64,000 nt of DNA from an uncultured Candidatus Saccharibacteria bacterium. GTDB lineage: Bacteria; Patescibacteriota; Minisyncoccia; Phycocordibacterales; CALRHW01. Made by a program: the position numbers and the translations under genes. The stretch spans positions 4,425 through 68,424 of the forward strand of contig CAYMIL010000003.1 in assembly GCA_964390845.1 (NCBI GenBank), written 5' to 3'. Positions 2 to 27,959 of this stretch are shown in pieces. The notes below the pieces were generated by a model. It saw only the letters and a program-made list of their open reading frames with translations. It searched no databases and was not told the DNA's origin. Numbering within the stretch: the first letter of the stretch is position 1; every line of letters begins with the position of its first letter.

Positions 2-1363
2 GTGTATCAGGAGGTTATCCGCAAAGAGCGCAATCTTGAATATAAAGGAAAGACAGTAGAGGTTGTGCCAGATGTTCCACTCGAAGCTATTCGTCGCATC
101 GAGCAGGCTGCAAAAAATGCCGACGCTGATGTTACGGTCATCGAAATTGGTGGCACAATTGGTGAGTATCAAAACGTGCTCTTTGTCGAAGCGGCTCGTA
201 TGATGAAGGCGCGAAACCCTCGCAGTGTTGCTGTCGTGATGGTGTCGTATCTGCCGATGCCGTCGATGATCGGCGAGATGAAGACAAAGCCCACGCAACA
301 CGCGGCACGCTCACTCAACAGTGTTGGTGTGCAGGCGGATATTATTATCGCCCGCAGTCATGTGCACCTCGACCAAAAACGAAAAGAAAAAATCGCAATT
401 TTCTGCAACATTCCCGCACAGCAGGTTATTTCAGCTCCCGATGTTGAAAGTATTTACGATGTGCCTATCAATTTTGAAAAAGACAAGCTCAGCTCGCGCC
501 TCTGCGACATCCTCGACCTCAAGCCGAAAAAACGCGTTGCCGATCTCGCGCCATGGAAACAATTGCTCAAGCGCGTGCGCAACGGTTCGACAGATGTTCG
601 CATCGCAATCGTTGGAAAATATTTTGATTCTGGCAATTTCTCTCTTTCCGACGCATATATTTCTGTTATTCATGCAATAAAATTTTCCGCATACAAACTC
701 GGCGTGAAGCCGGTGATTGAATACTTAAGTGCCCGCGATTTTGAAACAGGGAAGCGTGCACTTTCAGACCTCGATGCATATGATGGTATTTTGGTGCCCG
801 GTGGTTTTGGCTCCACAGGCATAGAGGGGAAGCTGAAGGTGATTGAATACGCGCGCACAAAGGGCATTCCATACTTCGGTATTTGCTACGGCATGCAACT
901 TGCTGTCATAGAGTACGCGCGCAATGTTGCAAAACTTTCTGGTGCACACACGACCGAAGTTAACCCAAAAACTCCTTATCCAGTGATATACATCATGCCT
1001 GAGCAGAAAGAGAACCTTGCTGAAAACCGCTATGGTGGCACAATGCGCCTCGGTGCATACCCTGCGGTTCTCAAGAAAGACACCATCGCGCGTGCGGCGT
1101 ATGGCAGTGAAAAAATCTCAGAGCGTCATCGACATCGCTATGAAGTAAATCCGGCATATGTTGAAAAACTAGAAAAAGCCGGCCTTGTCTTTTCAGGTGT
1201 ATCGCCGAGTCGTACGCTTATGGAAATTGCAGAGCTTCCACGCGAAGTGCATCCATTTTTTGTCGGCGCGCAGTTTCACCCAGAATTTCAGGCGCGACCA
1301 CTTGCTCCACACCCGCTTTTTACCGCGTTTGTAGAGGCTTCACTTAAGAGGAAGAGAAAATAA
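2..1363 (+). CDS. pyrG: CTP synthase, 5'-truncated at window edge (C-terminal synthetase part plus glutamine amidotransferase domain)
   Basis: GATase motifs GICYGMQ and HRHRYEVN; continuous frame from the window edge; stop at 1361-1363. Confidence 0.9.
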   Translation: MYQEVIRKERNLEYKGKTVEVVPDVPLEAIRRIEQAAKNADADVTVIEIGGTIGEYQNVLFVEAARMMKARNPRSVAVVMVSYLPMPSMIGEMKTKPTQHAARSLNSVGVQADIIIARSHVHLDQKRKEKIAIFCNIPAQQVISAPDVESIYDVPINFEKDKLSSRLCDILDLKPKKRVADLAPWKQLLKRVRNGSTDVRIAIVGKYFDSGNFSLSDAYISVIHAIKFSAYKLGVKPVIEYLSARDFETGKRALSDLDAYDGILVPGGFGSTGIEGKLKVIEYARTKGIPYFGICYGMQLAVIEYARNVAKLSGAHTTEVNPKTPYPVIYIMPEQKENLAENRYGGTMRLGAYPAVLKKDTIARAAYGSEKISERHRHRYEVNPAYVEKLEKAGLVFSGVSPSRTLMEIAELPREVHPFFVGAQFHPEFQARPLAPHPLFTAFVEASLKRKRK

Positions 1364-1378
1364 AGGCGTTTCAGTCTG

Positions 1379-2929
1379 TTAATACGCCTCAGGAGTCTTT
1401 TCTTTGAGGTATGAGATGAACTGATTTGAGAAGTTGAGCACGAGCTTAAACGGCGTTTCGATGATGAAGTCCATGATGAGGACAAAGACGTTGATCGATG
1501 CAAATGTCTGACTAAGCCAACGACCGGTGCGGATGATCGGCACGGTAAAGATACTTCCGATAAGTGAGAGTGCGCTGTCGCGTGTTGTGATCTTCCATCG
1601 TCGCGCATTGTATCGGATACGGAATGCGAAGTAGCTTACGAGGGCAAGGAAGAAGAGGAATATTGCGATACTGATTGCATTGAAATGGATTGCGTGGAGG
1701 CCCGCGACGATACCGCCAAAGACAACACCAAGAAGTGTGAAATATACAAGACTAAAGACGTAGGTGAGCGCTGTGTTGCCAGTGCGAATCTTTACACGTT
1801 CAACCTTTCCTTCATAAAACACTTCACGCATACCTCGTATAATAAGCTCGCTGTTTTTCTCTCCAAATGTTCCCACACCTCGTGTCGCGAGCAAGAGTAG
1901 GAGAGGGTGAAACACGATGTTGATACCAAGCGATAGGTAGCTGATGGCATTAAAGAAGATAAGCTCGTACGGCAACTCAATTCCGATTGCAAAGATTGCT
2001 TTGGTAAAGAAGAGGTAGAGCACTGCGCGGATACCGCTTGAGCGAATGCGCGCGTTTTCTTTTGCGTACTTCTCCTCAAGAAGGCCTTTTGTAAACGACT
2101 CAAGCTCTGCTTCGTTTTCGAGGATGTGCCCAGATTGTGTACCGTATTTGTGCACCAGCTCTCGGATAATCAGGAAATAGATTGTGTAATTGCGGAGGCG
2201 CTGAACAAGTTTCCATTGCACGGTGTTTTTTATCGCAGTATCGATAGCATCAACAATAGAAGACAAGCGTGCATCCACCTCCTGAATCTTTTCATCAGAG
2301 ATGTCTTTCCACTCAGGCACCATTTTAAGCCAGAGGGCATATGAGAGGGCTTCGTCGTCTGAGCGCAAAAGTGCTCGATGGCATGCGCAGTAGAGCATGA
2401 GATCTATTTCTCGCTCTGGTATGCCGGGGAGCACGATACTGCTTCGCATTGTTTCGTAAAACGCATCAACAAGGCTGTGATCGGCGGTGTGCTCAAGGGG
2501 GTGAATAGCGTGTTCGATTTCTGTCGCCGCAAAAGAGATAAGGCGTTTTCTGTCGCGACTCGAGATCTCGTTTGGCGCTTTTTCAAGACGAACAAATCGG
2601 GAGATGATTGCGTCGATAGCTCGCCCCATTTCCTCTGTAACAATTTCTTCGCCGATATACTGACCGCTTGCAAGCTCTTGCAGCAGAGAGATACCAGAGG
2701 CCTCACCACCTTCAATAACGGTTTTTCGTTTGATGATGCGCTCGAGTGCATTGCGACGCACCATGTGGTCTTCTTTGAAATCCACAAGATAGCGTACTTT
2801 CTCGTAATAGGTTGCCGCCTTGGCCACAAGGCGGTTTACATCAAAGACGGTCTTACCACTCTCGAGGGCGCCATTACCGCTAAACTCGGCCAGTTTTTGG
2901 CTGAATTTGCTCATTGGTTGAGTTAACAT
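1379..2929 (-). CDS. hypothetical membrane protein (about 300 aa soluble N-terminal region followed by multiple TM helices)
   Basis: 516-aa ORF; hydrophobic helices in the C-terminal half; no motif I recognise. Confidence 0.55.
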   Translation of the reverse strand: MLTQPMSKFSQKLAEFSGNGALESGKTVFDVNRLVAKAATYYEKVRYLVDFKEDHMVRRNALERIIKRKTVIEGGEASGISLLQELASGQYIGEEIVTEEMGRAIDAIISRFVRLEKAPNEISSRDRKRLISFAATEIEHAIHPLEHTADHSLVDAFYETMRSSIVLPGIPEREIDLMLYCACHRALLRSDDEALSYALWLKMVPEWKDISDEKIQEVDARLSSIVDAIDTAIKNTVQWKLVQRLRNYTIYFLIIRELVHKYGTQSGHILENEAELESFTKGLLEEKYAKENARIRSSGIRAVLYLFFTKAIFAIGIELPYELIFFNAISYLSLGINIVFHPLLLLLATRGVGTFGEKNSELIIRGMREVFYEGKVERVKIRTGNTALTYVFSLVYFTLLGVVFGGIVAGLHAIHFNAISIAIFLFFLALVSYFAFRIRYNARRWKITTRDSALSLIGSIFTVPIIRTGRWLSQTFASINVFVLIMDFIIETPFKLVLNFSNQFISYLKEKTPEAY

Positions 2930-2962
2930 AAGGGGTATTATACCAGAAAAAAGCCGCCTCCC

Positions 2963-3589
2963 TCAATAGTGTCGAGGGGGCGGCTGGTCGAACCATGCGA
3001 AGAGGAGCGCGACGGCTCCAACGGTGAAGATGGCGATTTCCGCCACAAACCACGTGCTGATCAGGTACTTCCTGAGCCAGTTCTTGTCGCCGTGGCTCTT
3101 GATGCGCTCATGAAGCACTGCAGGCTCCCACGCAGTAACCCACGCCATCGGGTTTTTGTGGACATACGGCGTGTTGTATGTGTCCACAAAGAACTTGTAT
3201 GCCTTGTTGGAAAATGGCCAGAGCCATTTCACACCCCACCCAACACCAAACGAGTCGTTGACGAAGTGGGTACTGGTGCAGGCACATGCAAGCAGGGCGC
3301 TGATGATCCCTGTCCGCACCGAGCCGTCGACAACTCCGCCAAGTGCCCCCGCAACGAGCGCGAGCGCCGGCAGGAAGACGAGGGGGTAGTGGAAGAGGTC
3401 CCGGTGGTTGTGCGGGTTGTCCTTGTGGGCCGTGATGCCACCCAAGAACAGTGCGTCGAAGTCTGGAAGCACGGAGCACATGAGTGCAAGCGCGAGGAGT
3501 CCCCAGTGCGTGTGAAGGGGCACATCGAATGCGTTGCACATCACCGAGGTCCAGAGCATGGCAAAACCTAGGTCTGAAATGAACAACAT
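2963..3589 (-). CDS. membrane-bound metal-dependent hydrolase, YdjM/DUF457-like
   Basis: LPDFD and HNHRDLFHYP motifs resemble the E. coli YdjM LPDIDHP/HRGFTHS motifs; AGGAGG SD 6 nt before the internal ATG (M73 of the track ORF); the upstream part of the track ORF overlaps tRNA-Gln; GC-rich. Confidence 0.6.
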   Translation of the reverse strand: MLFISDLGFAMLWTSVMCNAFDVPLHTHWGLLALALMCSVLPDFDALFLGGITAHKDNPHNHRDLFHYPLVFLPALALVAGALGGVVDGSVRTGIISALLACACTSTHFVNDSFGVGWGVKWLWPFSNKAYKFFVDTYNTPYVHKNPMAWVTAWEPAVLHERIKSHGDKNWLRKYLISTWFVAEIAIFTVGAVALLFAWFDQPPPRHY

Positions 3590-3715
3590 GACGCGCCTCC
3601 TTTCTCTATGGGTAATGGGCGTCTTGGAGGATAAAATATCTAAAAAAAGATTGGTTGTCAAGGAGGTATTGAATAATTGGACTTTTTGAAGTATCGTAAA
3701 GAACGTTTGAAGTAT

Positions 3716-3789
3716 TGCCGATTCGTCTAATGGTAGGACGACCGCCTCTGGAGCGGTTAATTGGGGTTCGAGTCCCTGATCGGCAGCCA
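3716..3789 (+). tRNA. tRNA-Gln (anticodon CTG), CCA encoded
   Basis: Cloverleaf built by hand: acceptor TGCCGAT/ATCGGCA, D stem GTCT/GGAC, anticodon stem ACCGC/GCGGT with loop CUCUGGA, T stem plus TTCGAGT loop, discriminator G followed by CCA. Confidence 0.8.
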
Positions 3790-3840
3790 AGTCATGCGGG
3801 GTCATCGCGCTCGAGGTGCGTGAGAATGTATAATTGTTAT

Positions 3841-7345: not shown

Positions 7346-8173
7346 TTAGTATAACACTGAGGTGTGTGCTGAAGTAAGCTCAACAACCACAATGCGTCCG
7401 TCTGATGTGTATTTTCCAACAGTAAACGCGCCCGCCTCGTATTCTTTGACGCGCTCGACACATCCTGCGCGCACGAGGTCTGCGACGAGGCGGGCGCGCT
7501 CAGAATCTATGTTTGTATCGACGCGGTGAGAAATTTGAAATGTGAGTTGTGTAAAACCGAAACCAATATCTTTTGTCGCAGAGCCAAGCCATAGCGTTGC
7601 AGGTTCTGTGGGTGTTGGCTGTGTGTTGCTCCAAAAACGCGGGTCTGCAGGGTCGGGAAGTGTGTGCGCATGAAGTCCCCAGAAACGCACATGATGACGT
7701 CGGCGCGGACTATTACCGATTGGCTTTTCAAAACCAACATCTGCGGGACGACCAAAAAGAAGGAGTGTGCTAAACGGCGCTCGTGGATAAGGACGATTGA
7801 ATAAAAAAGCGATTGTCATGCGCCAGCCTGTACGGAGGGTGAGTCTGTCGGCAAGAAACCACCCAGCACGAGCAAACGCTTCTTCGAGTGCTTTTCGAGA
7901 ACCAATAACAGCAATGTTGACGGGGTCGCCAGGGATGCCGTCTTTTGCTCGTGTAAAGCGGGGGATTCTTCCTTTTCTCACAATGAGAAGCCAGAGCTCG
8001 ATAATGCCGGGTAGTAGAATGTATGCGAGCGCGGCGTAGGAAGAAAATAATGCAAGAAATAAAAGGAGTTGGTGGTCAAAATGGTTTGATACCACGACCG
8101 CTGAAAACCACAACAGTGCGATAGCCACAGCAAACCCGCCTATTCGCTGAAGGATACGGGCAAGAATATTCAT
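7346..8173 (-). CDS. membrane protein, tentatively LssY C-terminal-like domain
   Basis: N-terminal TM helices, then a GDPVN...GW..AD region that I recall from LssY_C-type proteins; low certainty. Confidence 0.45.
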   Translation of the reverse strand: MNILARILQRIGGFAVAIALLWFSAVVVSNHFDHQLLLFLALFSSYAALAYILLPGIIELWLLIVRKGRIPRFTRAKDGIPGDPVNIAVIGSRKALEEAFARAGWFLADRLTLRTGWRMTIAFLFNRPYPRAPFSTLLLFGRPADVGFEKPIGNSPRRRHHVRFWGLHAHTLPDPADPRFWSNTQPTPTEPATLWLGSATKDIGFGFTQLTFQISHRVDTNIDSERARLVADLVRAGCVERVKEYEAGAFTVGKYTSDGRIVVVELTSAHTSVLY

Positions 8174-8267
8174 GTGTTAATGATAGCGCAGGGTTCTCGT
8201 CTTTTGTGTGGATAAGAACACCCCTCGCCGACAATGTCGACGAGGGGTGCGGTGCCTTGGGTCTGCT

Positions 8268-8927
8268 TCACGCGATGACTTCGTGCCACAGTTTGACGAT
8301 CTCGCCGACGACTTGGTCGACGCTCATCATGGTGGTATCGATGATGATTGCTCCCCGGGCGGTGGTGAGTGGGGCACACTCGCGCTTCTTGTCTCGCTCA
8401 TCCCGTTCGATGATGGCGGTGCGGATAGCGAAGAGTGATCCCTGATGTGTGCGCCGGGCGTCGCTCGCGATTCTCATGGCACGAGTGTCTTCGCTTGCGT
8501 CCATGTAGATCTTGAGCTTCGCTTCTGGGAAGACCACGCTCCCCATGTCGCGCCCTTCAGCAACGATGCCTTGGGTGCCGACCTGGCTCTGCAGGATGTG
8601 GTTGACGTCTCGGCGCACCGCGGGAATCTTGCCGATTTCCGAGGCACGCTTGCCCATCTCCTCACTCCAGAGCCTCTGTGGCGGCTCGCTTCCGCTGATG
8701 AGCAGTTGGTCGCCGTTGAAGCTGATGCGCGTCACGTCGAAGCGTGACTGGTCCTTGTTGTGTATGGACGCGCCCTGGTTTTGCAGATACGCCGCGGCGC
8801 GATAGACCACGCCGGAGTGCAGAACACGGAAGCCGAGCTTCTGTGCGACAAGTTTGCTCACGGTGCTCTTGCCAACACCGGCGGGACCATCGATCGTGAT
8901 CACGCGTTCCTTCGGTGTCAAATTCAT
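8268..8927 (-). CDS. cmk: cytidylate kinase
   Basis: ITIDGPAGVGKSTV P-loop and the LHSGVVYR motif; GC-rich compared with its neighbours. Confidence 0.9.
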   Translation of the reverse strand: MNLTPKERVITIDGPAGVGKSTVSKLVAQKLGFRVLHSGVVYRAAAYLQNQGASIHNKDQSRFDVTRISFNGDQLLISGSEPPQRLWSEEMGKRASEIGKIPAVRRDVNHILQSQVGTQGIVAEGRDMGSVVFPEAKLKIYMDASEDTRAMRIASDARRTHQGSLFAIRTAIIERDERDKKRECAPLTTARGAIIIDTTMMSVDQVVGEIVKLWHEVIA

Positions 8928-9013
8928 GAAGTGACTCCTGTTTTTGTGGTGCGATTCTACAATCTTTGTATATCAGAATGGATGAGGAGTCAAATGTATG
9001 TATAATATGTCTC

Positions 9014-10435
9014 ATGGATACGTTTTATGTCACAACCCCGATTTACTACGTCAACGACAAGCCCCACATTGGCCATGCGTATACCACGCTGATTGCCGAT
9101 GTCTATGCGCGCTTTTATCGTGAGCGTCTTGGTGCCGAAAATGTCTTTTTCCTTACGGGTACAGACGAGCACGGTGCGAAAGTTGCACAGTCTGCTGAAA
9201 AAAATGGCATCGCTCCTCAGGAATTTACCGATAAAGTCTCTGCGGAATACAAAGCAGTGTGGAAGATGCTTGGTATTAGTTATGACGAATTTTTCCGAAC
9301 AACAGATCCTCGGCACAAAGAAACGGTGCAGGCATTTTTACAGAACCTCTATGACAAAGGCTATATCTACAAAGCGGCATACAAGGGCACATATTGTATC
9401 GGATGTGAGAAGTTTCTTTCGTTTGAAGAGATTGTAAATGGTGCGTGCGCGCTTCATCCCAACCTCAAACTTGTTGAGCAAGAAGAAGAAAATTATTTTT
9501 TCAAAATGAAGGAGATGTCTGCGCGCGTACTGGAAAAGCTTGAGGCTGGCGCGTATTCTGTTTTTCCAGAAGAGCGAAAGAATGAAATTATTGGGAAAAT
9601 GAAGCAGGGCATCGAGGATATTTCTATTTCTCGTGTTGGCGTGACATGGGGCGTGCCGGTGCCGTGGGACCCAGCGCACACGGTGTATGTGTGGGTTGAT
9701 GCGCTTATCAACTACTATTCCGCAACTCGAATTTATCCGGGACGTGAAGGTTTTTGGCCACCAACATTGCATCTTATGGCAAAAGATATTTTGTGGTTCC
9801 ATGCACTTGTCTGGGAGGGTCTACTTCTCGCACACGATCTTGAATTGCCAAAAACAGTCTTTGCGCACGGTTTCTTTACTATCGACGGGCAAAAGATGTC
9901 GAAATCTTTGGGCAATGTTATCAATCCTGTTGATATCGTGACAGAATATGGTGTCGACGGCGCGCGATATTTGCTTGCGAGCGCGTTTCAATTTGGAAGT
10001 GATGGTGATATTTCACTCGCGCGATTCAAAGAAAAATTTAATAGTGATTTGGCAAACGGTATTGGTAATCTCGTATCGCGTATTGCCAAGCTCGCGGAAA
10101 AATTGGAAGTAAATCCGGCAGACATAGAGCGTGCACGGTTGCTTGCAACACAAGACGAGACAATACTGCGTCATTTTGAGTCGCATCGACCAGATGAAGC
10201 GCTTCGGTATGTGTGGTCAAAGATAGCGGTCCTTGACGCGCGCATGGCGACAGATAAGCCGTGGGAGATTGCAGATACGGGCACACTTTCACAGACACTC
10301 ACAAGTTATATTGAATCGTTGATTACCATTGGCACACTCTTGCGACCGTTCTTACCTGAGACATCAGAAAAGATTCTCAGTATCTTTACTGCACAAAAAA
10401 TCACAAAACCTGAGCCATTGTTTTTGAGAAAATAG
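9014..10435 (+). CDS. metG: methionyl-tRNA synthetase (short form)
   Basis: HIGH motif PHIGHAYTT and KMSKS motif KMSKSLGN; TATAAT box 8 nt upstream of the ATG (near-leaderless). Confidence 0.9.
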   Translation: MDTFYVTTPIYYVNDKPHIGHAYTTLIADVYARFYRERLGAENVFFLTGTDEHGAKVAQSAEKNGIAPQEFTDKVSAEYKAVWKMLGISYDEFFRTTDPRHKETVQAFLQNLYDKGYIYKAAYKGTYCIGCEKFLSFEEIVNGACALHPNLKLVEQEEENYFFKMKEMSARVLEKLEAGAYSVFPEERKNEIIGKMKQGIEDISISRVGVTWGVPVPWDPAHTVYVWVDALINYYSATRIYPGREGFWPPTLHLMAKDILWFHALVWEGLLLAHDLELPKTVFAHGFFTIDGQKMSKSLGNVINPVDIVTEYGVDGARYLLASAFQFGSDGDISLARFKEKFNSDLANGIGNLVSRIAKLAEKLEVNPADIERARLLATQDETILRHFESHRPDEALRYVWSKIAVLDARMATDKPWEIADTGTLSQTLTSYIESLITIGTLLRPFLPETSEKILSIFTAQKITKPEPLFLRK

Positions 10436-12504: not shown

Positions 12505-12539
12505 CACACAGCCTCTGTTTGGTTTGCTATACTATATGT

Positions 12540-13736
12540 ATGAAGAAATATAGTTTTATCATCATTATTATTGCCACTGTGCTATGGTATGGTTTTGGTG
12601 CGCTTTCGGTACATGCGGCGCAGTGTACATTTGATAGAAATCTTGATGTAGGTGACGAGGGAGAGGATGTTCGCTGTTTGCAAAAGTTTTTGAATTCTGC
12701 TGGCTTCGTGATTACGACAACAGGAGGTGGAGCGCCAGGTAATGAAACAACCAAGTTTGGTGAGCTTACACGTCAGGCGCTTGCAAAATGGCAGAGTGCG
12801 CAGGGCCTTACTCCACCAATAGGCTATTTCGGCACGCTTTCTCGTCAAAAATATGGCGCGCTGTCGGGTTCGTCGAGCACATCAGGCTCTTCCGGTTCCG
12901 GAGATCTCACATATCTTCAAGAGCGATTGGCGCAATTGCGAGAGCAACTCAATAATGCCCAATCATCATCACAGCAGGTTGTTGTAAATGCGACAGAGAG
13001 TAGTGCGCGCGCCGCTATAGAAAAAGCTGTCGATGGAATTATCGACGCAGAGAAAAAGGTTGATGATGGCAACGAGGACGATGACGACATTATGGCCGCT
13101 CACGACAACCTTGATGATGCGCGCGAATCCTTTGTACGCGCAATACGCTCATATTTCCGTGGCGACTATAATGGTGCAGTGCAATATGCACAGAAAGCGG
13201 TGGACGATGCACTCGATGCATATTCTGACGCTGGTGGAAAAACTGATGAAGATAAGGCAGATGCCCTCATAGATAAAGTGCAGGAAAAGATTGACGATGC
13301 TCACGATACAATTGATGCCGCAGATGATGACGGCGAGGATATTGATGAAGCAGAAGATATTTTGTCTGAAGCAGAGGACAAGCTTGATGAGGCTGATGAT
13401 GCCTTTGACGATGCCGACTACGAGCGGTCAATAGAGCTTGCTGAGGAAGCAGAAGACCTTGTGCGAGATGCTATCGATGCTATTGGAAACTCAGACAAGA
13501 GTGACGCACAAGAGGAAATAGATGATGCTCAGGAGATGATTGATGATGCCGAAGAGGAGATTCAGGACGCCGAAGACGATGGTGATGATGTCGATGATGC
13601 GTGGGACCTGCTTGATGATGCAAAAAAGTATCTTGATGATGCTCAGGATGAGTATGACGACAAAAATTACAGCGCCGCAAAGAACCTTGCTAAAAAAGCT
13701 CAAAACAAGGTCGACGACGCTCTCGACGAGATTTAA
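12540..13736 (+). CDS. secreted peptidoglycan-binding-domain protein with three acidic tandem repeats
   Basis: Signal/TM IIIIIATVLWYGFGALSVHA; PG_binding_1-like DVGDEGEDVRCLQKFLNSAGF...LTRQALAKWQ; C-terminal roughly 250 aa very D/E-rich with three repeats of about 60 aa (DDG.EDD.D...LDDA...DY...A..AVDDALD). Confidence 0.65.
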   Translation: MKKYSFIIIIIATVLWYGFGALSVHAAQCTFDRNLDVGDEGEDVRCLQKFLNSAGFVITTTGGGAPGNETTKFGELTRQALAKWQSAQGLTPPIGYFGTLSRQKYGALSGSSSTSGSSGSGDLTYLQERLAQLREQLNNAQSSSQQVVVNATESSARAAIEKAVDGIIDAEKKVDDGNEDDDDIMAAHDNLDDARESFVRAIRSYFRGDYNGAVQYAQKAVDDALDAYSDAGGKTDEDKADALIDKVQEKIDDAHDTIDAADDDGEDIDEAEDILSEAEDKLDEADDAFDDADYERSIELAEEAEDLVRDAIDAIGNSDKSDAQEEIDDAQEMIDDAEEEIQDAEDDGDDVDDAWDLLDDAKKYLDDAQDEYDDKNYSAAKNLAKKAQNKVDDALDEI

Positions 13737-15066: not shown

Positions 15067-16245
15067 CTACTTTGTGTCTTTCAGAGAAAAACTCCACAGC
15101 GCTCCCGTGAGCGTGATGATACCGAGTATTGAAAACGTGTAGCTGTATGGGGCATGTGAGATTGTTGTGCAGTATGCCGCAAGACTCACCACTGCTGGGG
15201 TAATAATGTATGACAGCGGTCGTGTTGCTCGAAAGAGGCTAATGAAGCCAGCGTTTTTGTCGGTAACGTGTTTGAAAAAATACGACTCTGATGACACTTC
15301 AACAAAGCTTGCTCCAACGCGTGTCAAAAAGAGAAACAGCGCCCACAATACAAGGTCTGAACTACGGAGGGCGGGTATGCAGAATGTTGTTACGGACATG
15401 ATACAGAAACCGGTGATGAGTATTTCTTTCTCACCGATTTTTTTGTCCGCGAGCGCGCCTAGTGGAAGCTCAAAAAGCATAAAAGGGAGTAGCATAATGG
15501 TGAAGATGACACCGATATGAGACCATGAAAATCCTATGTGGTTGTGCAAATACAGTGGCATGTAGATGACCATCCATGCGTAAAAGAATTGGAGAACGCA
15601 CTGTCCAGCGAGCGCTCCGCGGATGTCTCGGTTGCTCCACGCATCTCGAAGTGTGCCACGGATGTCGATGGTGCGCACTCGGCTTCCCGTTGCACCTCGT
15701 AGATAGTGTCGTACAACAAAAAAGAGAGGGAAGAGAAAGAGGAGAGAAACGAGGTATACATTGCCGTAGTGTCCGCTTGCGAGAAGTATGCCGGTAAGAA
15801 GTGGCGATACGACGAGTGTGATATTTCCAAGTGTGAGATAAAGTCCGCGCGCTACGCCAGTGTGCTTTTCGTTTTTAAGTGATCCTTCGAGAAATACATC
15901 GAGGCCGAATGTCGCGAGAGGGATGATCGCTTGGTGTGTGATAAATGCCAAGGCGACTGTCATGGGCGTTGAGCCAACCGCAAGTCCCACAAGCGCCGAC
16001 GCCTCAAGCACCAGTGCCCACAGGGTATACTTGTGGTTTCCAATACGCGACAAAATACGTGGAGTACAAAAAAGCAGGATAGTAGTAATCACGGATCCTA
16101 CCATATACAGAAGTCCAAGTGTATCTGCTGAGAAAAAAGTGCCGAGGTACGAGGAGTTGACGTAAATGATCAGGAAAAAATGGAATGAAAGCAGAAGGTT
16201 TGAAAGGTAGATTGCGATAAGGCGATGTGATGGTGTGTGTGACAT
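15067..16245 (-). CDS. MFS transporter
   Basis: 12-TM-like hydrophobic profile; internal ATG (MSHTPSH) with an AGGAG SD and an upstream TATACT -10 box; the longer track ORF has no signal upstream of this ATG. Confidence 0.7.
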   Translation of the reverse strand: MSHTPSHRLIAIYLSNLLLSFHFFLIIYVNSSYLGTFFSADTLGLLYMVGSVITTILLFCTPRILSRIGNHKYTLWALVLEASALVGLAVGSTPMTVALAFITHQAIIPLATFGLDVFLEGSLKNEKHTGVARGLYLTLGNITLVVSPLLTGILLASGHYGNVYLVSLLFLFPLFFVVRHYLRGATGSRVRTIDIRGTLRDAWSNRDIRGALAGQCVLQFFYAWMVIYMPLYLHNHIGFSWSHIGVIFTIMLLPFMLFELPLGALADKKIGEKEILITGFCIMSVTTFCIPALRSSDLVLWALFLFLTRVGASFVEVSSESYFFKHVTDKNAGFISLFRATRPLSYIITPAVVSLAAYCTTISHAPYSYTFSILGIITLTGALWSFSLKDTK

Positions 16246-16380
16246 GTACGCTCCTAAGTATACCTCGAGGAAGGAGCTCTTGACAGTGGAAAAATAAAGG
16301 CATATGGTAATGAGGAATCGCACCTTGGAATATTGCTCGACATGTTGTCGGCTCTTCGGTGCTCTGTCAAGGAGGTGTTT

Positions 16381-17055
16381 ATGCGTCGCATGTGCATGCT
16401 CCCGTTTCTGCTGATGATCGCTTGTGCGGTGACCTTGGTTGCCGCGGGCGACAAGAACACCGGCGACACGTCGTCGCCGAGCAAGTCGGAACACCGCGAC
16501 ATCTTCCGCGGGGGTCGTGTGACTCCCGACGAAATGGCAACCATCGCGCAGACCTTCTGCGCCGATGGCTACGCGGTGACGCAGTCCCGCGTGGTGGTTC
16601 CGAACGACGGTTCGGCGCTGTTCGTGGTTGGTGTCCTGACTACCAAGTCGGGGCGCCAGTACAACTTCGGCGACATCTTGCCTCCGGGCGAGGTGATCGT
16701 GTCCGGCATGGCGTGGGTCATGCCGCGTGGTCCTGATGCGTTCATGGACTACGACGGGTACAACGGCGTTCTCGAAGTCGCCGCTGGCGAGATGGTGGTC
16801 GTCGGGGACGTCCTCGACACCAGCGCCGACGGAGGCACTCCGGCGTCCACGGGACCGCAGACCTGCACGGTGACGTGTGGTACGTCAGCGTACTACGCCT
16901 GCTGCAGTTACCGGCCCGATGGTTACCCCACCTGCCACTGCAAGAAGCAGACGGAGAACGCCTCCTGCGCTTCCGGTGGCCCTGGGGCGAGCCAGTGCTC
17001 GCTGTCGCAGTCGCCTCCCGGCTCGAGTCAGCCGGGCAACAAGCCGCAGAACTAG
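16381..17055 (+). CDS. secreted cysteine-rich hypothetical protein (GC-rich island)
   Basis: AGGAGG SD 6 nt before the ATG; signal peptide MRRMCMLPFLLMIACAVTLVAAG; 10 Cys clustered in the last 50 aa; strongly GC-enriched third codon positions. Confidence 0.6.
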   Translation: MRRMCMLPFLLMIACAVTLVAAGDKNTGDTSSPSKSEHRDIFRGGRVTPDEMATIAQTFCADGYAVTQSRVVVPNDGSALFVVGVLTTKSGRQYNFGDILPPGEVIVSGMAWVMPRGPDAFMDYDGYNGVLEVAAGEMVVVGDVLDTSADGGTPASTGPQTCTVTCGTSAYYACCSYRPDGYPTCHCKKQTENASCASGGPGASQCSLSQSPPGSSQPGNKPQN

Positions 17056-17074
17056 CCCCTGCGGCACAACAAAA

Positions 17075-17112
17075 CCGGCCAGCACCCTTGAGGTGCTGGC
17101 CGGCTCTTTTTT
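17075..17112 (+). terminator. rho-independent terminator
   Basis: CCGGCCAGCACC-cttga-GGTGCTGGCCGG followed by CTCTTTTTTATT. Confidence 0.8.
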
Positions 17113-17144: not shown

Positions 17145-19028
17145 TTAGACTCCAAGTACCACAGGGATAACAATTGGCTTCTTTGCGGTGCGCTGGAAGA
17201 GGAAGCGAGTAACTGAATCAGCAATATTTTCCTTTACGTAATCGAAGTTGATTGGATTCATGCCGACAGTCGTGTCTTCCACGGTCTTTTTGATAAGTGT
17301 GCGTGCCTCCTGAAGCAAATCCTGAGATTCGCGCAAATAAATGAATCCTCGAGAAATGATGTCGGGGGACTTTCGGAGCTTTCCTGTCTTGAGGTTGACG
17401 CTTGCGATGATGACAAACATGCCGTCTTCCGCGAGCATTTTTCTGTCACGCATCACAACTTCCTGCACGTCTCCGACAGAGAATCCATCTACCATCACCA
17501 TACTGTTTGGGGCAGACTCTTTGAGCTTTACGATTTTTTCACCCTTGTCCTGTATTTCAATAATAGAGCCGTTGTCTGGTACAACAATATGGTCTTCTGG
17601 CATGCCAAGTGATTCTACGAGCTGAGCATGAAGACGTAGGCGATAGTGGTTGCCGTGAATAGGCATAAAGAATTTCGGATTGATCTTCTTAAACATCCAT
17701 TCAAGCTCGCCGCGGTTGCCGTGGCCTGTGGAGTGGATGTACACATCGGATGTTCGATAGTGAATGATTTTGGCACCCTGTCGCGCGATATTGTCTTTGA
17801 GTTTTTCTACCTTCTTTTCATTGCCAGGAACGATAGATGAAGAGAGCAACACGGTATCACGTTTCGTAAGTTGGAAGTTTTTGTGGTTTTTTGTCGCCAT
17901 GCGCATAAGACCAGAAAACTCTTCTCCCTGTGCACCCGTTGCGAGAATAACAATCTTGTCTGGTGGGTACTTTTCCACGTCTTCGGTAGGAATCATCGTT
18001 TCCTTTTTAGGGTTAAACATTCCTGCCGCCTTTGCGATTTCAAGATTTGTTTTCATGCTTCGGCCTTCTACGGCGACACGTTTTCCATAGTGTTCTGACA
18101 CTTCGATAATTTTGATGAGGCGCTCGAGGGTAGAAGCAAAGGTGCCGATAATAAGACGCCCTTTAATATTTTTAATGATATCCTCGAGATTTTTGTGAAC
18201 GATTTTTTCTGGTGTTGAAAAACCAGGGTTTTCAACGTTTGTTGAGTCGTTCATAAAGAGAAGTACCTTTTCTTTTTCAAATCGTTTGTACTCTTTCTCT
18301 TCTGCTTCTGTTGGCATGCCGTCATTGTGGTCGAGTTTTGGGTCGCCGGCATTGACGATGCATCCGTATGGAGTTTCGATAATTACACCCATTGAGTCTG
18401 GAATCGTGTGGGACACTGAAAAGAATCGGACAGGGAGATTGCCGAGGCGGATGCGCTCTTCTTTTTCCACGGTAACGATTTCAAACGGTGGAAACTGAGG
18501 AAACTCTTCCTGTCGCTTTTTGATCATGAGTGTCGTGAGCTGACGGGAGTAGAGTGGCGGGTTGCCGATACGTGGCATGATAAATGGAATACCGCCGATA
18601 TGATCGAGGTGGCCGTGAGTGATGATGACCGCGCGGATTTTATCTTTTCGATCTTCGAGGTACTTTGTGTTTGGGAGAATGTAGTCTACGCCCGGAGTAC
18701 CTTCTTCTTTAAATTGAAAGCCCATATCGATGACAATGATGTCATTGCCAAACTCTACGGCTGTCATGTTTCGGCCGATTTCTTCAACGCCTCCAAGTGG
18801 GATGATGCGCACATTGTCACCAAGTGGTGGAATGGTGTCTTCGTGTTTTCTTTGCTGAGGACGTTGTCCGCCCGCGTCTCGTCGCATAGCGCTTGGGCTT
18901 CCGCGCATACCAGCGACGGGTCGTCGTCCCATATTACCTCCGCGAGATCGTCGGCGAGGTCGTTCTCCGCGTGATCGCGGTGCGGACGAAGAAAATGCTC
19001 GTCGCGGTGTTTCTTGTGATTGTTCCAT
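17145..19028 (-). CDS. rnj: ribonuclease J with an Arg-rich N-terminal extension
   Basis: Metallo-beta-lactamase HGHLDHIGG motif, beta-CASP and C-terminal domain; about 70-aa R/G/P-rich N-terminus. Confidence 0.9.
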   Translation of the reverse strand: MEQSQETPRRAFSSSAPRSRGERPRRRSRGGNMGRRPVAGMRGSPSAMRRDAGGQRPQQRKHEDTIPPLGDNVRIIPLGGVEEIGRNMTAVEFGNDIIVIDMGFQFKEEGTPGVDYILPNTKYLEDRKDKIRAVIITHGHLDHIGGIPFIMPRIGNPPLYSRQLTTLMIKKRQEEFPQFPPFEIVTVEKEERIRLGNLPVRFFSVSHTIPDSMGVIIETPYGCIVNAGDPKLDHNDGMPTEAEEKEYKRFEKEKVLLFMNDSTNVENPGFSTPEKIVHKNLEDIIKNIKGRLIIGTFASTLERLIKIIEVSEHYGKRVAVEGRSMKTNLEIAKAAGMFNPKKETMIPTEDVEKYPPDKIVILATGAQGEEFSGLMRMATKNHKNFQLTKRDTVLLSSSIVPGNEKKVEKLKDNIARQGAKIIHYRTSDVYIHSTGHGNRGELEWMFKKINPKFFMPIHGNHYRLRLHAQLVESLGMPEDHIVVPDNGSIIEIQDKGEKIVKLKESAPNSMVMVDGFSVGDVQEVVMRDRKMLAEDGMFVIIASVNLKTGKLRKSPDIISRGFIYLRESQDLLQEARTLIKKTVEDTTVGMNPINFDYVKENIADSVTRFLFQRTAKKPIVIPVVLGV

Positions 19029-25393: not shown

Positions 25394-25408
25394 TGTGAGA
25401 TGTGATGC

Positions 25409-25972
25409 TCACTGCTGAGCACGAATGATGGCCGCGTCAACCGTCTGCTGGAGGGTCCGCACTCGAGGCCAGCACTCCGGGCTCTCTCGCACGGCCTCTC
25501 GGAAGTTGTGCGTGATCTCGCGCTGGCCCGGAAAGTCCTCCTCCATGCCGATGACGACACGTCTGTGGTGTTCGAACATCAGGTGTCCACGCCACTCGCC
25601 GAGTTCGCCTCGGGTGTCCTGCGCGTATGGGCCTTCTGCTGGGTCGCGTGGGACGGTCTTGGACTCGCAGGGGAGCCAGAACATGAGGCACCCCTTGCGA
25701 GACGCAAACTCCATCCACCGACGCTCCCACTTGATGTGGTGCACCGGCTCAGGGTTTGAGTTTGGGGTGATCTCGTGTGCACGGATCGGATGGTCACTCG
25801 GATAGGAAACGGGGATCACGAGCGTGCACGAAAGCGAGTACCGCGAGAAGATCTTGTGACACTCGCTCTGCCAGTCGTTGCCTCCGCGCACAGGCCCAGC
25901 CAGGAAAAAGACATGACCAGGCGGGTTGATCGATTCGGGCATCGTCTTCGGAAGAACAATTTTCGCCGACAT
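25409..25972 (-). CDS. nucleoside 2-deoxyribosyltransferase-like (DNPH1/Rcl-type fold) protein, tentative
   Basis: VFFLAGPVRG...W N-terminal motif and a downstream VVIGMEED region resemble the N-deoxyribosyltransferase-like superfamily; GC-rich. Confidence 0.4.
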   Translation of the reverse strand: MSAKIVLPKTMPESINPPGHVFFLAGPVRGGNDWQSECHKIFSRYSLSCTLVIPVSYPSDHPIRAHEITPNSNPEPVHHIKWERRWMEFASRKGCLMFWLPCESKTVPRDPAEGPYAQDTRGELGEWRGHLMFEHHRRVVIGMEEDFPGQREITHNFREAVRESPECWPRVRTLQQTVDAAIIRAQQ

Positions 25973-26107: not shown

Positions 26108-26197
26108 GGAAAGATGCCAGAGCGGTCGAATGGGCCACCCTGGAAAGGTGGTATATCCGAAAGGGTATCGAGGGTTCGAATCCCTCTCTTTCCGCCA
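26108..26197 (+). tRNA. tRNA-Ser (anticodon GGA), long variable arm, CCA encoded
   Basis: Acceptor GGAAAGA/TCTTTCC, anticodon loop CUGGAAA, 18-nt variable arm, GGTTCGAATCC T-arm, G-CCA end. Confidence 0.85.
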
Positions 26198-26904: not shown

Positions 26905-26996
26905 GACGCTTATATGCCTCGGGTATACGATGAACTATGAGAATTCTTGGCGCGTTGCCGAGGATATGTTCCTTACCAGATCAGAAGGAGGAGGGT

Positions 26997-27959
26997 ATGG
27001 CAAAAAAGAACCCACTGAGTAGCCCGGTGTTCATGGGCCGCCCATTCCGCATGGCTGTGAAGGGAGGAATGCTTCGGCCTTTCTGCAAGAGCGTCGAGGT
27101 GTTGCCGAAGATTCAGAAGGAGGGAAGGTTTTACACCCTCCATCTCTGCATCAACAAGGGACGCAAGACGCTCTCGTACACCCCAGTCTTGTACCAGTGC
27201 GACCTCGTCGCGCTGTGGCGGAGTGCGCAGGTCATCGAGCGGTTTCGCTCCATTTCGTCTGAGGACATGATGTACGCGTACTGTGCTGTCTACTGGGCAT
27301 CGTACAACGAAGCCTCGGGCATCACGCACGCCAACGACGCACAGTGTGTCACCGAAGTCCGCAAGGTCATCGGCGACGATGAGTTTGTGCGGATCATGCA
27401 AACCCCACCGCCAGAGGACATCATCAAGGCAATCGTGATGGGTGCCGGCGTCAAGAGGAGCCTTTCTCTGACGCCGCTCACCTACGAGTGCAAGCGTGGC
27501 ACGATTTTGTGGAGGAATACGTTTGCTCAGGTGTGCGTCCTGCACCCTGAGACATGGGAAGCTCGACGAGAGAGTCTCAAGGAAATCCTCTACAAGTACG
27601 AACCCGACCTGCACAACTGTGCGGTGGAGGTGCTCGAATCGTTCTCGCGCGACATCAACTGCGTGCCGATGCTTGAGGTGGTCGCTGGAGACATCATCTT
27701 CGACGCGCCCTACGCATCGATCACTCCGCACGTTCTCTGCGCCGCGTCGGCGATTGTGCTTGGGCTTCGTCTTCACACCCAGCGCAAGATCGACAAGGGC
27801 CAGAATGTGAGTGAGCTCGGGTTTCAGGAGGCCGTGCACGCACGCCTCTATGAACGTGCGGTGCTCTGGCTCAAAAGCCGCACTGAACGAAAGGATGAGG
27901 AACGAGTGTTCAAGGAACTCGACTTCGTCTTGGAGCAGACGGTCGCGTGCTCCATCTAG
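26997..27959 (+). CDS. hypothetical protein, 321 aa (GC-rich island)
   Basis: GAAGGAGGAGGG SD before the ATG at 26997; Cys-containing; no recognisable domain. Confidence 0.5.
   Translation: MAKKNPLSSPVFMGRPFRMAVKGGMLRPFCKSVEVLPKIQKEGRFYTLHLCINKGRKTLSYTPVLYQCDLVALWRSAQVIERFRSISSEDMMYAYCAVYWASYNEASGITHANDAQCVTEVRKVIGDDEFVRIMQTPPPEDIIKAIVMGAGVKRSLSLTPLTYECKRGTILWRNTFAQVCVLHPETWEARRESLKEILYKYEPDLHNCAVEVLESFSRDINCVPMLEVVAGDIIFDAPYASITPHVLCAASAIVLGLRLHTQRKIDKGQNVSELGFQEAVHARLYERAVLWLKSRTERKDEERVFKELDFVLEQTVACSI

Follow-up and report, generated by a model that had tools for sequence, protein, structure and literature searches.

Neither secreted effector peptides rich in disulfides nor hypervariable replacement loci are new. 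Hypervariable replacement islands, such as bacteriocin and pherotype, pilin and surface-antigen loci, carry divergent alleles between conserved flanks, and classical genomic islands stand out from their hosts in GC content and codon usage, a kind of atypicality that is routinely read as recent horizontal gene transfer. Among the peptides, bacteroidetocins are encoded in loci that combine a cysteine-containing peptide with a double-glycine (GG) leader, a thiol oxidoreductase presumed to be responsible for its disulfides, a transmembrane (TM) protein and a C39-ABC transporter (PMC6671954), and the mature peptides are 42 residues long with 4 cysteines (Coyne et al., 2019, PMC6671954). Here we describe a locus that resembles each of these systems in part. 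It lies in a 64-kb stretch of DNA (the window) from a clade of Paceibacteria within the Patescibacteria, or candidate phyla radiation (CPR), and consists of one small, GC-rich gene between the genes for RNase J (rnj) and a major facilitator superfamily (MFS) transporter. The gene would be one allele of a self-contained cassette that occupies a fixed rnj-MFS slot in this clade. We tentatively propose, at close to an even chance, that the cassette is polymorphic and was acquired anciently, and that it encodes a Sec-exported, disulfide-stabilised effector, most likely antagonistic, whose N-terminal domain (N-domain) serves as a specificity determinant or carrier.

The coding sequence (CDS; 16381-17055, plus strand) has a GC content of 0.650, with 0.58, 0.54 and 0.83 at the first, second and third codon positions (GC1, GC2 and GC3). 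Mean GC over the 64-kb window is 0.478; in 675-nt windows the standard deviation (SD) is 0.038 and the maximum, 0.659, falls on this CDS, which at about 4.8 SD above the mean is the top outlier. Over the gene, 300-nt windows have a GC of 0.62-0.68, and over the MFS and rnj flanks about 0.42-0.49. Codon choice is equally alien: GC3 for the host is about 0.45; CCA, ACA and GTA are absent from the CDS, as against 0.47, 0.45 and 0.22 in pooled host genes; and the share of CTG is 0.50 compared with 0.06. The original prediction, made from the sequence of the window, had described a GC-rich island with G or C at nearly all third positions, and both the sliding-window profile and the codon comparison bear this out. 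The identical protein is encoded on 212-302-kb contigs of independent NCBI, ENA and Logan assemblies, so an assembly chimera is unlikely.

Although this CDS is the most extreme GC outlier, further GC-elevated open reading frames (ORFs) are present in the window. They include cmk, a housekeeping cytidylate kinase gene of foreign-like composition (8268-8927, minus strand; Pfam PF02224, E 2e-56; GC 0.60, GC3 0.76), a 340-residue ORF at 26937-27959 (plus strand; GC3 0.745) that matches nothing in Pfam or NCBIfam, has no obvious signal peptide and does not resemble the cysteine module described below, and a YdjM-like ORF at 2963-3805 (minus strand; GC3 0.68). The longest version of the latter is overlapped at its 5' end, on the opposite strand, by a tRNA-Gln gene (3716-3789, plus strand), and its true start is therefore probably further downstream. 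A GC-rich patch (0.61-0.67 per 100 nt) also lies at about 25400-25700, upstream of tRNA-Ser (26108-26197).

By RNase J, the relatives of the window are Patescibacteria/Paceibacterota (Parcubacteria), with 75-82% RNase J identity to the nearest species representatives, and they share the gene order SBP5-rnj-slot-MFS-methyltransferase-Gmad2. Among 73 related loci in which rnj is followed by MFS, the junction is empty (<250 nt) in 47 and holds at least 450 nt of cargo in 22, mostly other than the family studied here; such assorted cargo marks the junction as a general insertion hotspot. GC-rich homologues of the window gene occupy the same slot in at least six further genomes (loci L002, L082, L083, L084, L131 and L133), convergent with rnj and with MFS on the other side wherever the contig reaches that far, and one more family protein, P0006, has a gene layout compatible with the slot. 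The slot genes have GC 0.58-0.65 next to flanks of 0.37-0.48, and GC3 0.66-0.83 in genomes with GC3 0.25-0.48 (Table 1). The second GC-rich gene in L084, encoding X198, is a remote homologue of the family (HHalign probability 91.6%, E 8e-7).

Other slots hold different genes. The relative closest by RNase J (82%), L003, carries a slot gene at 7819-8412 (minus strand; GC 0.55 in a locus of 0.39) for a 197-residue secreted protein with a 6-cysteine C-terminus and a GGGPPPGPPPTPAPKPKPKP tail, beside a 338-residue ORF at 8481-9497 (minus strand). We considered this protein as a family member and rejected it at an HHalign probability of 1.8%. By eye, the slot of L017 contains a transposase-like ORF of 314 residues, those of L017 and L024 contain short ORFs resembling Flp pilins, and that of L010 contains a small pair resembling a toxin-antitoxin system.

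The original prediction took the composition of the gene as a sign of recent horizontal acquisition, and held that homologues of the same composition conserved at this locus in relatives would speak against it; just such homologues are found in at least six relatives. The proteins in the window and in the relatives' slots are 26-49% identical. At conserved residues, the fourfold-degenerate sites of slot alleles are 0.26-0.37 identical, about as composition alone predicts (0.25-0.33), and are thus saturated for most allele pairs; the unsaturated pairs are L083-L084 (0.47) and L002-L083 (0.42). Between L133 and L002, which carry close alleles and are collinear, the slot gene has a synonymous divergence (dS) of 0.53, a nonsynonymous divergence (dN) of 0.113 and a ratio (omega) of 0.21, compared with 0.78, 0.019 and 0.025 for the C-terminal part of rnj and 0.94, 0.06 and 0.064 for the MFS gene. 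Slot dS is thus no higher than that of the flanks, and the two slot copies have GC3 of 0.78 and 0.77 next to neighbours of 0.27-0.40. This allele has co-diverged in place with its genome, under purifying selection. Its protein evolves 2-6 times faster than the flanking proteins. The slightly lower dS of the slot gene hints, at most, at constrained synonymous sites, and balanced S/W counts for this pair are uninformative because a pairwise comparison cannot polarise changes.

The borders of the gene tell a similar story. There is no integrase, the neighbours being MFS and rnj, no tRNA gene within 9 kb, and no meaningful flanking direct or inverted repeat apart from the terminator. Like classical genomic islands, the gene contrasts with its host in GC and codon usage and belongs to a family native to GC-rich bacteria elsewhere; unlike them, it is present in relatives, bears no mobility signatures at its borders, has been kept in place and shows no amelioration despite saturated synonymous divergence. 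A single recent acquisition from a GC-rich donor, not yet ameliorated, would account for the extreme contrast with the host and for the mostly GC-rich contigs in which the wider family is native, and the other GC-elevated genes of the window suggest that import from such donors happens. It would not account for the syntenic, saturated homologues, for the dS of the L133/L002 pair, for the clean borders, or for a promoter and 5' untranslated region (5'UTR) of host-like composition whose sequence the cassettes of the clade have conserved. Moreover, the nearest database sequences are slot occupants of the same clade and not genes of GC-rich organisms, and an exhaustive HMMER search, which covered about 15 billion proteins through 1.84 billion cluster representatives, found no near-identical copy in a donor context. 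We consider recent acquisition very unlikely. An ancient foreign origin is plausible. Most members of the family from outside the clade are found on contigs that are themselves GC-rich.

Comparison of the alleles locates their divergence precisely. In L002 and L084, RNase J is 98% identical in amino acids and 89% in nucleotides, whereas the slot proteins are 26% identical and the slot genes have no nucleotide similarity; homology ends at the rnj stop codon and sets in again some 60 nt upstream of the MFS gene. L133 and L084 have a nucleotide identity of 0.83-0.93 over the promoter and UTR and of only about 0.3-0.5 inside both ORFs, with a slight bump at the second promoter and recovery at rnj. 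Slots hold one or two cassettes, L002 being without the first, and X198 and P0060, the proteins of the first cassettes, have an identity of 28% and share their first (MRC) and last (AVD) residues. All slot cassettes in the relatives have the same anatomy, namely a TTGACA-N17-TAnnGT promoter, an AT-rich 5'UTR of 75-95 nt, a GGAG Shine-Dalgarno (SD) sequence and a GC-rich ORF, each followed by its own GC-rich hairpin (-24 to -36 kcal/mol). GC-richness and hyper-divergence are confined to the ORF, and the promoter and 5'UTR, which the clade has conserved, are AT-rich and host-like.

The window cassette conforms to this plan (Table 1). Its own AGGAGG SD sequence and strong terminator, both claimed in the original prediction, are present: the former lies 5 nt ahead of the ATG at 16381, and the terminator hairpin (17075-17103), which is followed by a T-run, has a folding energy of -27.3 kcal/mol (z -4.17), with 0 of 200 shuffled sequences as stable. 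Because an A-run lies upstream of it, the terminator could serve the convergent rnj as well. Within the UTR, the segment gcaccttggaatattgctcgac is similar to the UTRs of the second cassettes in L002 and L133, and a search of the 5'UTR against Rfam found no known RNA leader, only chance-level, sub-threshold matches on the terminator. Gene-calling programs start the gene at an ATG further upstream, at 16342, for a protein of 237 residues (P0001).

The slot thus resembles hypervariable replacement islands in its sharp homology breaks at the flanks, in alleles of 26-28% amino acid identity between flanks of 89% nucleotide identity, and in the empty sites of relatives, and differs from them in that the promoter, 5'UTR and terminator architecture is kept and only the ORF is hyper-diverged. 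From a limited literature search, we know of no precedent for a set of alleles that all keep a GC3 of 0.66-0.83 in low-GC3 genomes. The sequence pattern fits long-lived, divergent allelic lineages that would sit in a conserved frame and be exchanged by recombination, and the pattern of alleles, taken by itself, is suggestive of balancing selection at the slot. The dS of L133/L002 argues against local hypermutation. A target of a diversity-generating retroelement was also considered and rejected: when the 64-kb window, the only DNA searched, was compared with the gene by blastn (word size 7), it yielded the gene itself and its own hairpin, with no template repeat.

Could the alleles instead have been imported again and again from an unsampled GC-rich pool, such as a host organism, a GC-rich phage or a plasmid, so that the GC-richness of each reflects its own recency? 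The hotspot character of the slot, with diverse cargo in 22 of 73 relatives, would suit such traffic, as would the occurrence of family members on GC-rich contigs of the viral class in IMG/VR (L086/L121 and L085), the divergence of alleles far above that of the flanks, and the position of P0007 and P0060, which are not clearly in the core slot clade. Yet among the 1.84 billion representatives no sequence from a GC-rich context is nearer to any slot allele than other slot alleles are. Conservation across hyper-diverged alleles extends to the promoter, the 5'UTR and even the codons at either end of the ORF, which implies replacement or divergence inside a resident frame, and L133 and L002 co-diverged in place while GC3 was held at 0.77-0.78. 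Repeated re-import therefore seems improbable to us.

As the original prediction proposed, the encoded protein appears to begin with a signal peptide: by eye, MRR, a hydrophobic core and VAA/GD are of Sec type, and an AlphaFold2 (AF2) model places a helix at residues 7-19. A stretch within it, L-M-I-A-C15, could by eye fit a loose lipobox pattern; homologues have no cysteine at this position and end in AxA-like sites (for example VSA/H, MAA/E and MAA/D); all their N-termini are of the form K/R, hydrophobic stretch, AxA-like site. The AF2 model (pLDDT 83.8, pTM 0.76) also upholds the proposed soluble domain of about 120 residues, showing a folded N-domain whose blocks between residues 41 and 150 have a pLDDT of mostly 81-96. 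The C-terminal module was originally credited with 10 cysteines. We count 8 in 45 residues (C162, C166, C174, C175, C185, C187, C196 and C206), the number also present in the peptide quoted in that prediction; the precursor has 11 in total, the others being two in the signal peptide and C60. The module is modelled as four short strands in a compact beta-hairpin shape (pLDDT 92-95), and its 8 cysteines most likely form four disulfides. These sequence features support a Sec-type secreted, disulfide-rich product. Foldseek comparison of the model with PDB and BFVD returned nothing below E 0.02 and TM scores of at most 0.18.

The assignment of the cysteine pattern to no known family has held up. 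The window protein has no significant match in Pfam, NCBIfam, PHROGs, PADLOC or PDB sequences, none of the 51 aligned family members matches Pfam-A, and a profile search of PDB with the family was equally empty. DegS, suggested by a single-sequence PDB search, was rejected as not significant (E>=0.3) and without Foldseek backing. A word-indexed homology search, run with the single sequence and with the family profile, recovered only the query itself. The exhaustive HMMER search, in contrast, matched 66 representatives, mostly of 130-310 residues, at a threshold of E<=1e-3, and 14 at E<=1e-10, and the protein is therefore not an orphan. The module consensus is C-x-V-x-C-x(2-3)-[YF]-[YF]-A-C-C ... 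C-x-C ... C-x-x-G-G-x-G-[AS]-x-x-C, with invariant alignment columns at C166, C175, C187, C196, G199, G200 and C206 and near-invariant ones at A173, C174 and G202. Motifs in the N-domain are only weakly conserved (T-x-x-E-x-x-x-[LI]-A, [AP]-x-x-Y-x-V, G109 and PGxMxxVG). Some members carry the module in tandem pairs (P0008, P0010, P0015 and P0052), and others consist of a GG or Sec leader and the module alone (P0030, L099, L123 and L129). Limited literature searches on cysteine-rich secreted proteins or GC islands of CPR bacteria found nothing relevant. The libraries and literature that we searched contain no description of the 8-cysteine family, of CPR proteins in which it is fused to a Sec-exported N-domain, or of a GC-richness that persists within the ORF only.

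Outside the clade, the family gene has about the GC of its flanks in 44 metagenome loci, mostly 0.55-0.72 and in a few AT-rich cases 0.28-0.45. Family gene GC thus tracks its contig elsewhere, and the mismatch with the flanks is specific to the slot in Paceibacteria. Nor does the protein sequence force GC-richness, since AT-rich members exist, such as P0011 (gene 0.38, context 0.42).

Several of these distant loci have an organisation of their own. Adjacent paralogous pairs of family genes occur in L115 (7398-8090 and 8902-9603), near E and F genes of the type II secretion/type IV pilus kind (T2SS/T4P) on a 231-kb GC-rich non-CPR contig, and in L126 (7572-8165 and 8374-8973), on a 33-kb non-CPR contig of GC 0.43. 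The member in L086 (1096-4709; the same as L121; IMG/VR UViG_3300007984_000001; GC 0.68), on a contig of the viral class in IMG/VR, adjoins four tandem paralogous minus-strand ORFs with C-termini ...RLQGDA.P/S.xR, a neighbour family shared by L107. In L123 (182-4669) a gene pair occurs twice, a 92-residue Sec-leader peptide with parts of the cysteine module being followed by a protein of about 386 residues; one of the two larger proteins matches DUF5128, a six-bladed beta-propeller (E 3e-38).

The only pointer to the function of the module comes from L096, an AT-rich contig (GC 0.33, 4.2 kb) with three tandem ORFs of 70-71 residues, each consisting of MKKISNLGLPLTRQELKTIVGG and the 8-cysteine module and matching the family HMM at E 1e-14 to 2e-15. 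The leader fits what we take to be the classic double-glycine motif, and it matches NCBIfam models for TIGR04149 (GG-leader RiPP; E 1.7e-4), leader_Chryseo and the lactococcin-G leader, all under the curated cut-offs. Directly upstream lies a gene for a 548-residue VKOR+Thioredoxin_4 fusion, a disulfide-forming oxidoreductase. From its sequence, L096 is a candidate new bacteriocin-like locus. By analogy, its context indicates that the module is exported, carries disulfides and can work as a free, bacteriocin-type peptide, and so lends indirect support to the guess in the original prediction that the window protein might be bacteriocin-like. The comparison with bacteroidetocins is one of organisation only, not of sequence similarity: like them, L096 has short precursors (about 70 residues) with an L-x-x-x-E-L-x-x-I-x-G-G leader, in tandem and beside a thiol oxidoreductase, and its contig ends before any exporter. 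The window protein differs in having a Sec signal and an extra folded N-domain of about 115 residues, and its module has 8 cysteines instead of 4. The module of 45 residues stands free in L096, L099 and P0030, and in the window protein it forms the C-terminal end of a mature chain about 200 residues long. Because the module is elsewhere the whole mature part of GG-leader precursors beside a VKOR-thioredoxin, we read the window protein as an extracellular effector, which may, by this analogy, work like a GG-leader bacteriocin.

The same evidence bears on what else the module might be. Eight invariant or near-invariant cysteines with CxxxC, CC and CxC spacings, for which no structural precedent turned up, could bind a metal or cluster in the manner of metallothioneins or Fe-S proteins, making the product an extracellular metal chaperone or redox protein. 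The disulfide-forming enzyme beside the module in L096 points the other way, as do the compact beta-hairpin model and the GG-leader context, which fit disulfide-rich peptides. Sec exports unfolded chains and is not the usual route for cofactor-loaded proteins. We regard metal binding as extremely improbable.

An adhesin, which the original prediction also named, deserves more weight. The same cassette with the same history could encode a non-toxic, host-binding surface protein of an episymbiont, with the N-domain binding a ligand and the cysteine module and tail serving as a stalk or wall piece. Patescibacteria are widely held to be host-attached, and a secreted two-domain protein with a fast N-domain and a conserved C-terminal module would fit an episymbiotic lifestyle; polymorphism in presence and in alleles is typical of surface antigens, and the cassettes come without an accompanying immunity gene. 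The low-complexity tail, similar Pro/Lys-rich versions of which occur in P0003, P0005 and P0007, shows by eye no LPXTG motif and no TM anchor, and no S-layer or choline-binding motif was seen either. A free peptide of 45-50 residues behind GG leaders is hard to square with a purely structural stalk, and Foldseek (PDB and BFVD) found no fold similarity to known adhesin domains. We consider an adhesin rather unlikely on this evidence.

We therefore return to an effector encoded by an ancient, polymorphic cassette. Several observations weigh against it. For the GG leader, the evidence is confined to one short contig (L096, 4.2 kb) with sub-cut-off NCBIfam scores. The window protein itself has no GG leader, its start, MRRMCMLPFLLMIACAVTLVAAGD, being a Sec-type signal, and no C39-ABC transporter, thiol oxidoreductase or immunity gene is found beside the window gene or the slot cassettes. 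A TM-protein neighbour of the bacteroidetocin kind is likewise absent beside the window gene, which adjoins MFS and RNase J. Without a GG leader and with neither a transporter nor an oxidoreductase as neighbour, the window protein should not be filed as a GG-leader bacteriocin. No neighbouring gene is conserved across the wider family in the 44 metagenome loci, and neighbourhoods in large contigs are heterogeneous. Finally, a poorly resolved distance tree (neighbour joining, capped distances) groups the window protein with P0002-P0006 at 62% bootstrap and does not place P0007 and P0060. This is only moderate support for monophyly of the slot copies, and more than one acquisition is possible; the core group probably goes back to one origin, on a basis that does not stretch to all cassettes.

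The mechanism that we propose would run as follows. Sec would export a product made of a fast-evolving, beta-rich N-domain and the conserved 45-residue module with its 8 cysteines. The effector is predicted to be used on other cells, with bacteriocin-like antagonism as its likeliest activity, and the N-domain would give specificity or work as a carrier. The slot would be kept polymorphic: homologous recombination, acting in the conserved flanks and UTRs, would swap the allelic lineages. A single, ancient entry of the gene line into the clade, from a GC-rich donor, is probable, and the GC-richness of the line would since have been maintained by something besides recency.

We also entertain a stronger proposal, possible but on the whole doubtful, that a force restricted to the ORF keeps GC3 at about 0.7-0.8 through saturating divergence, and that the module is the hallmark of a widespread, hitherto unrecognised class of secreted peptides with a disulfide knot, ranging from GG-leader precursors to Sec-exported two-domain proteins. 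One candidate force is selection on synonymous sites or on the mRNA; another is GC-biased gene conversion, with the slot as a recombination hotspot. Translational selection was considered as a cause of the high GC3 and is unlikely, the GC3 of the window's GroEL (Cpn60) gene being 0.436.

Table 1. Parts of the window cassette and its neighbours, slot genes in related genomes, and the L096 locus (aa, amino acids)
Feature	Position	Strand	Composition or basis	Flanking GC
Promoter-like site, TTGACA-17 nt-TATGGT	16280-16308	+	10/12 consensus matches	
Putative AT-rich 5'UTR, about 70 nt, including AGGAGG SD at 16370-16375	16309-16380	+	Sequence	
CDS, 224 aa and stop	16381-17055	+	GC 0.65, GC3 0.83	
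Sec-type signal peptide, aa 1-22, MRRMCMLPFLLMIACAVTLVAA then GD	16381-16446	+	By eye; AF2 helix aa 7-19	
Variable N-domain, about aa 36-150, two helices then beta-rich fold	16486-16830	+	AF2	
8-Cys module, aa 162-206, CTVTCGTSAYYACCSYRPDGYPTCHCKKQTENASCASGGPGASQC	16864-16998	+	Family alignment; AF2	
Low-complexity Ser/Pro/Gln/Lys-rich C-terminal tail, aa 207-224	16999-17052	+	Sequence; pLDDT 74-76	
Intrinsic terminator: 12-bp GC-rich stem, 5-nt loop, T-run	17075-17112	+	Fold energy	
MFS transporter, left slot boundary, divergent from cassette	15067-16245	-	Pfam MFS_1	
RNase J, right slot boundary, convergent with cassette	17145-19028	-	Pfam RNase_J_b_CASP and RNase_J_C	
L002 (STL-PAT9) slot protein, 45-48% aa identity to window			GC 0.60, GC3 0.75	0.38
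L082, P0003			GC 0.58, GC3 0.67	0.43
L083, P0004			GC 0.60, GC3 0.66	0.45
L084, P0005			GC 0.61, GC3 0.72	MFS 0.37, rnj 0.41
L084, X198, second GC-rich gene			GC 0.605, GC3 0.73	MFS 0.37, rnj 0.41
L131, P0007			GC 0.58, GC3 0.66	0.41
L133, P0002			GC 0.60, GC3 0.78	0.37-0.41
L133, P0060			GC 0.61, GC3 0.71	0.37-0.41; inter-ORF spacer 0.43
L096 locus: VKOR+Thioredoxin_4 fusion, then three GG-leader/8-Cys precursors	1212-3789			

Elsewhere in the window, an ORF at 12519-13736 (plus strand) encodes a protein of about 400 residues with a PG_binding_1 domain (Pfam) followed by a long, extremely acidic low-complexity region of Asp, Glu and Ala.

The rnj-MFS slot is a clear counter-example to the routine reading of atypical GC content and codon usage as recent transfer, since its syntenic, orthologous alleles retain such a composition although their synonymous sites are saturated. 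Dating by amelioration would fail badly here, and a force acting on the ORF only would need explanation. The 8-cysteine module would represent an undescribed domain family spread across many environmental bacteria, occurring also as tandem doubles and as stand-alone GG-leader peptides next to a dedicated disulfide oxidoreductase. Its members are new candidates, and tractable ones, for a class of antimicrobial or signalling peptides rich in disulfides. For the Patescibacteria, whose genomes are tiny and which are thought to depend on other cells, a hypervariable cassette of this kind, with its own promoter and a predicted secreted effector as product, offers a concrete candidate mediator of cell-cell interactions.

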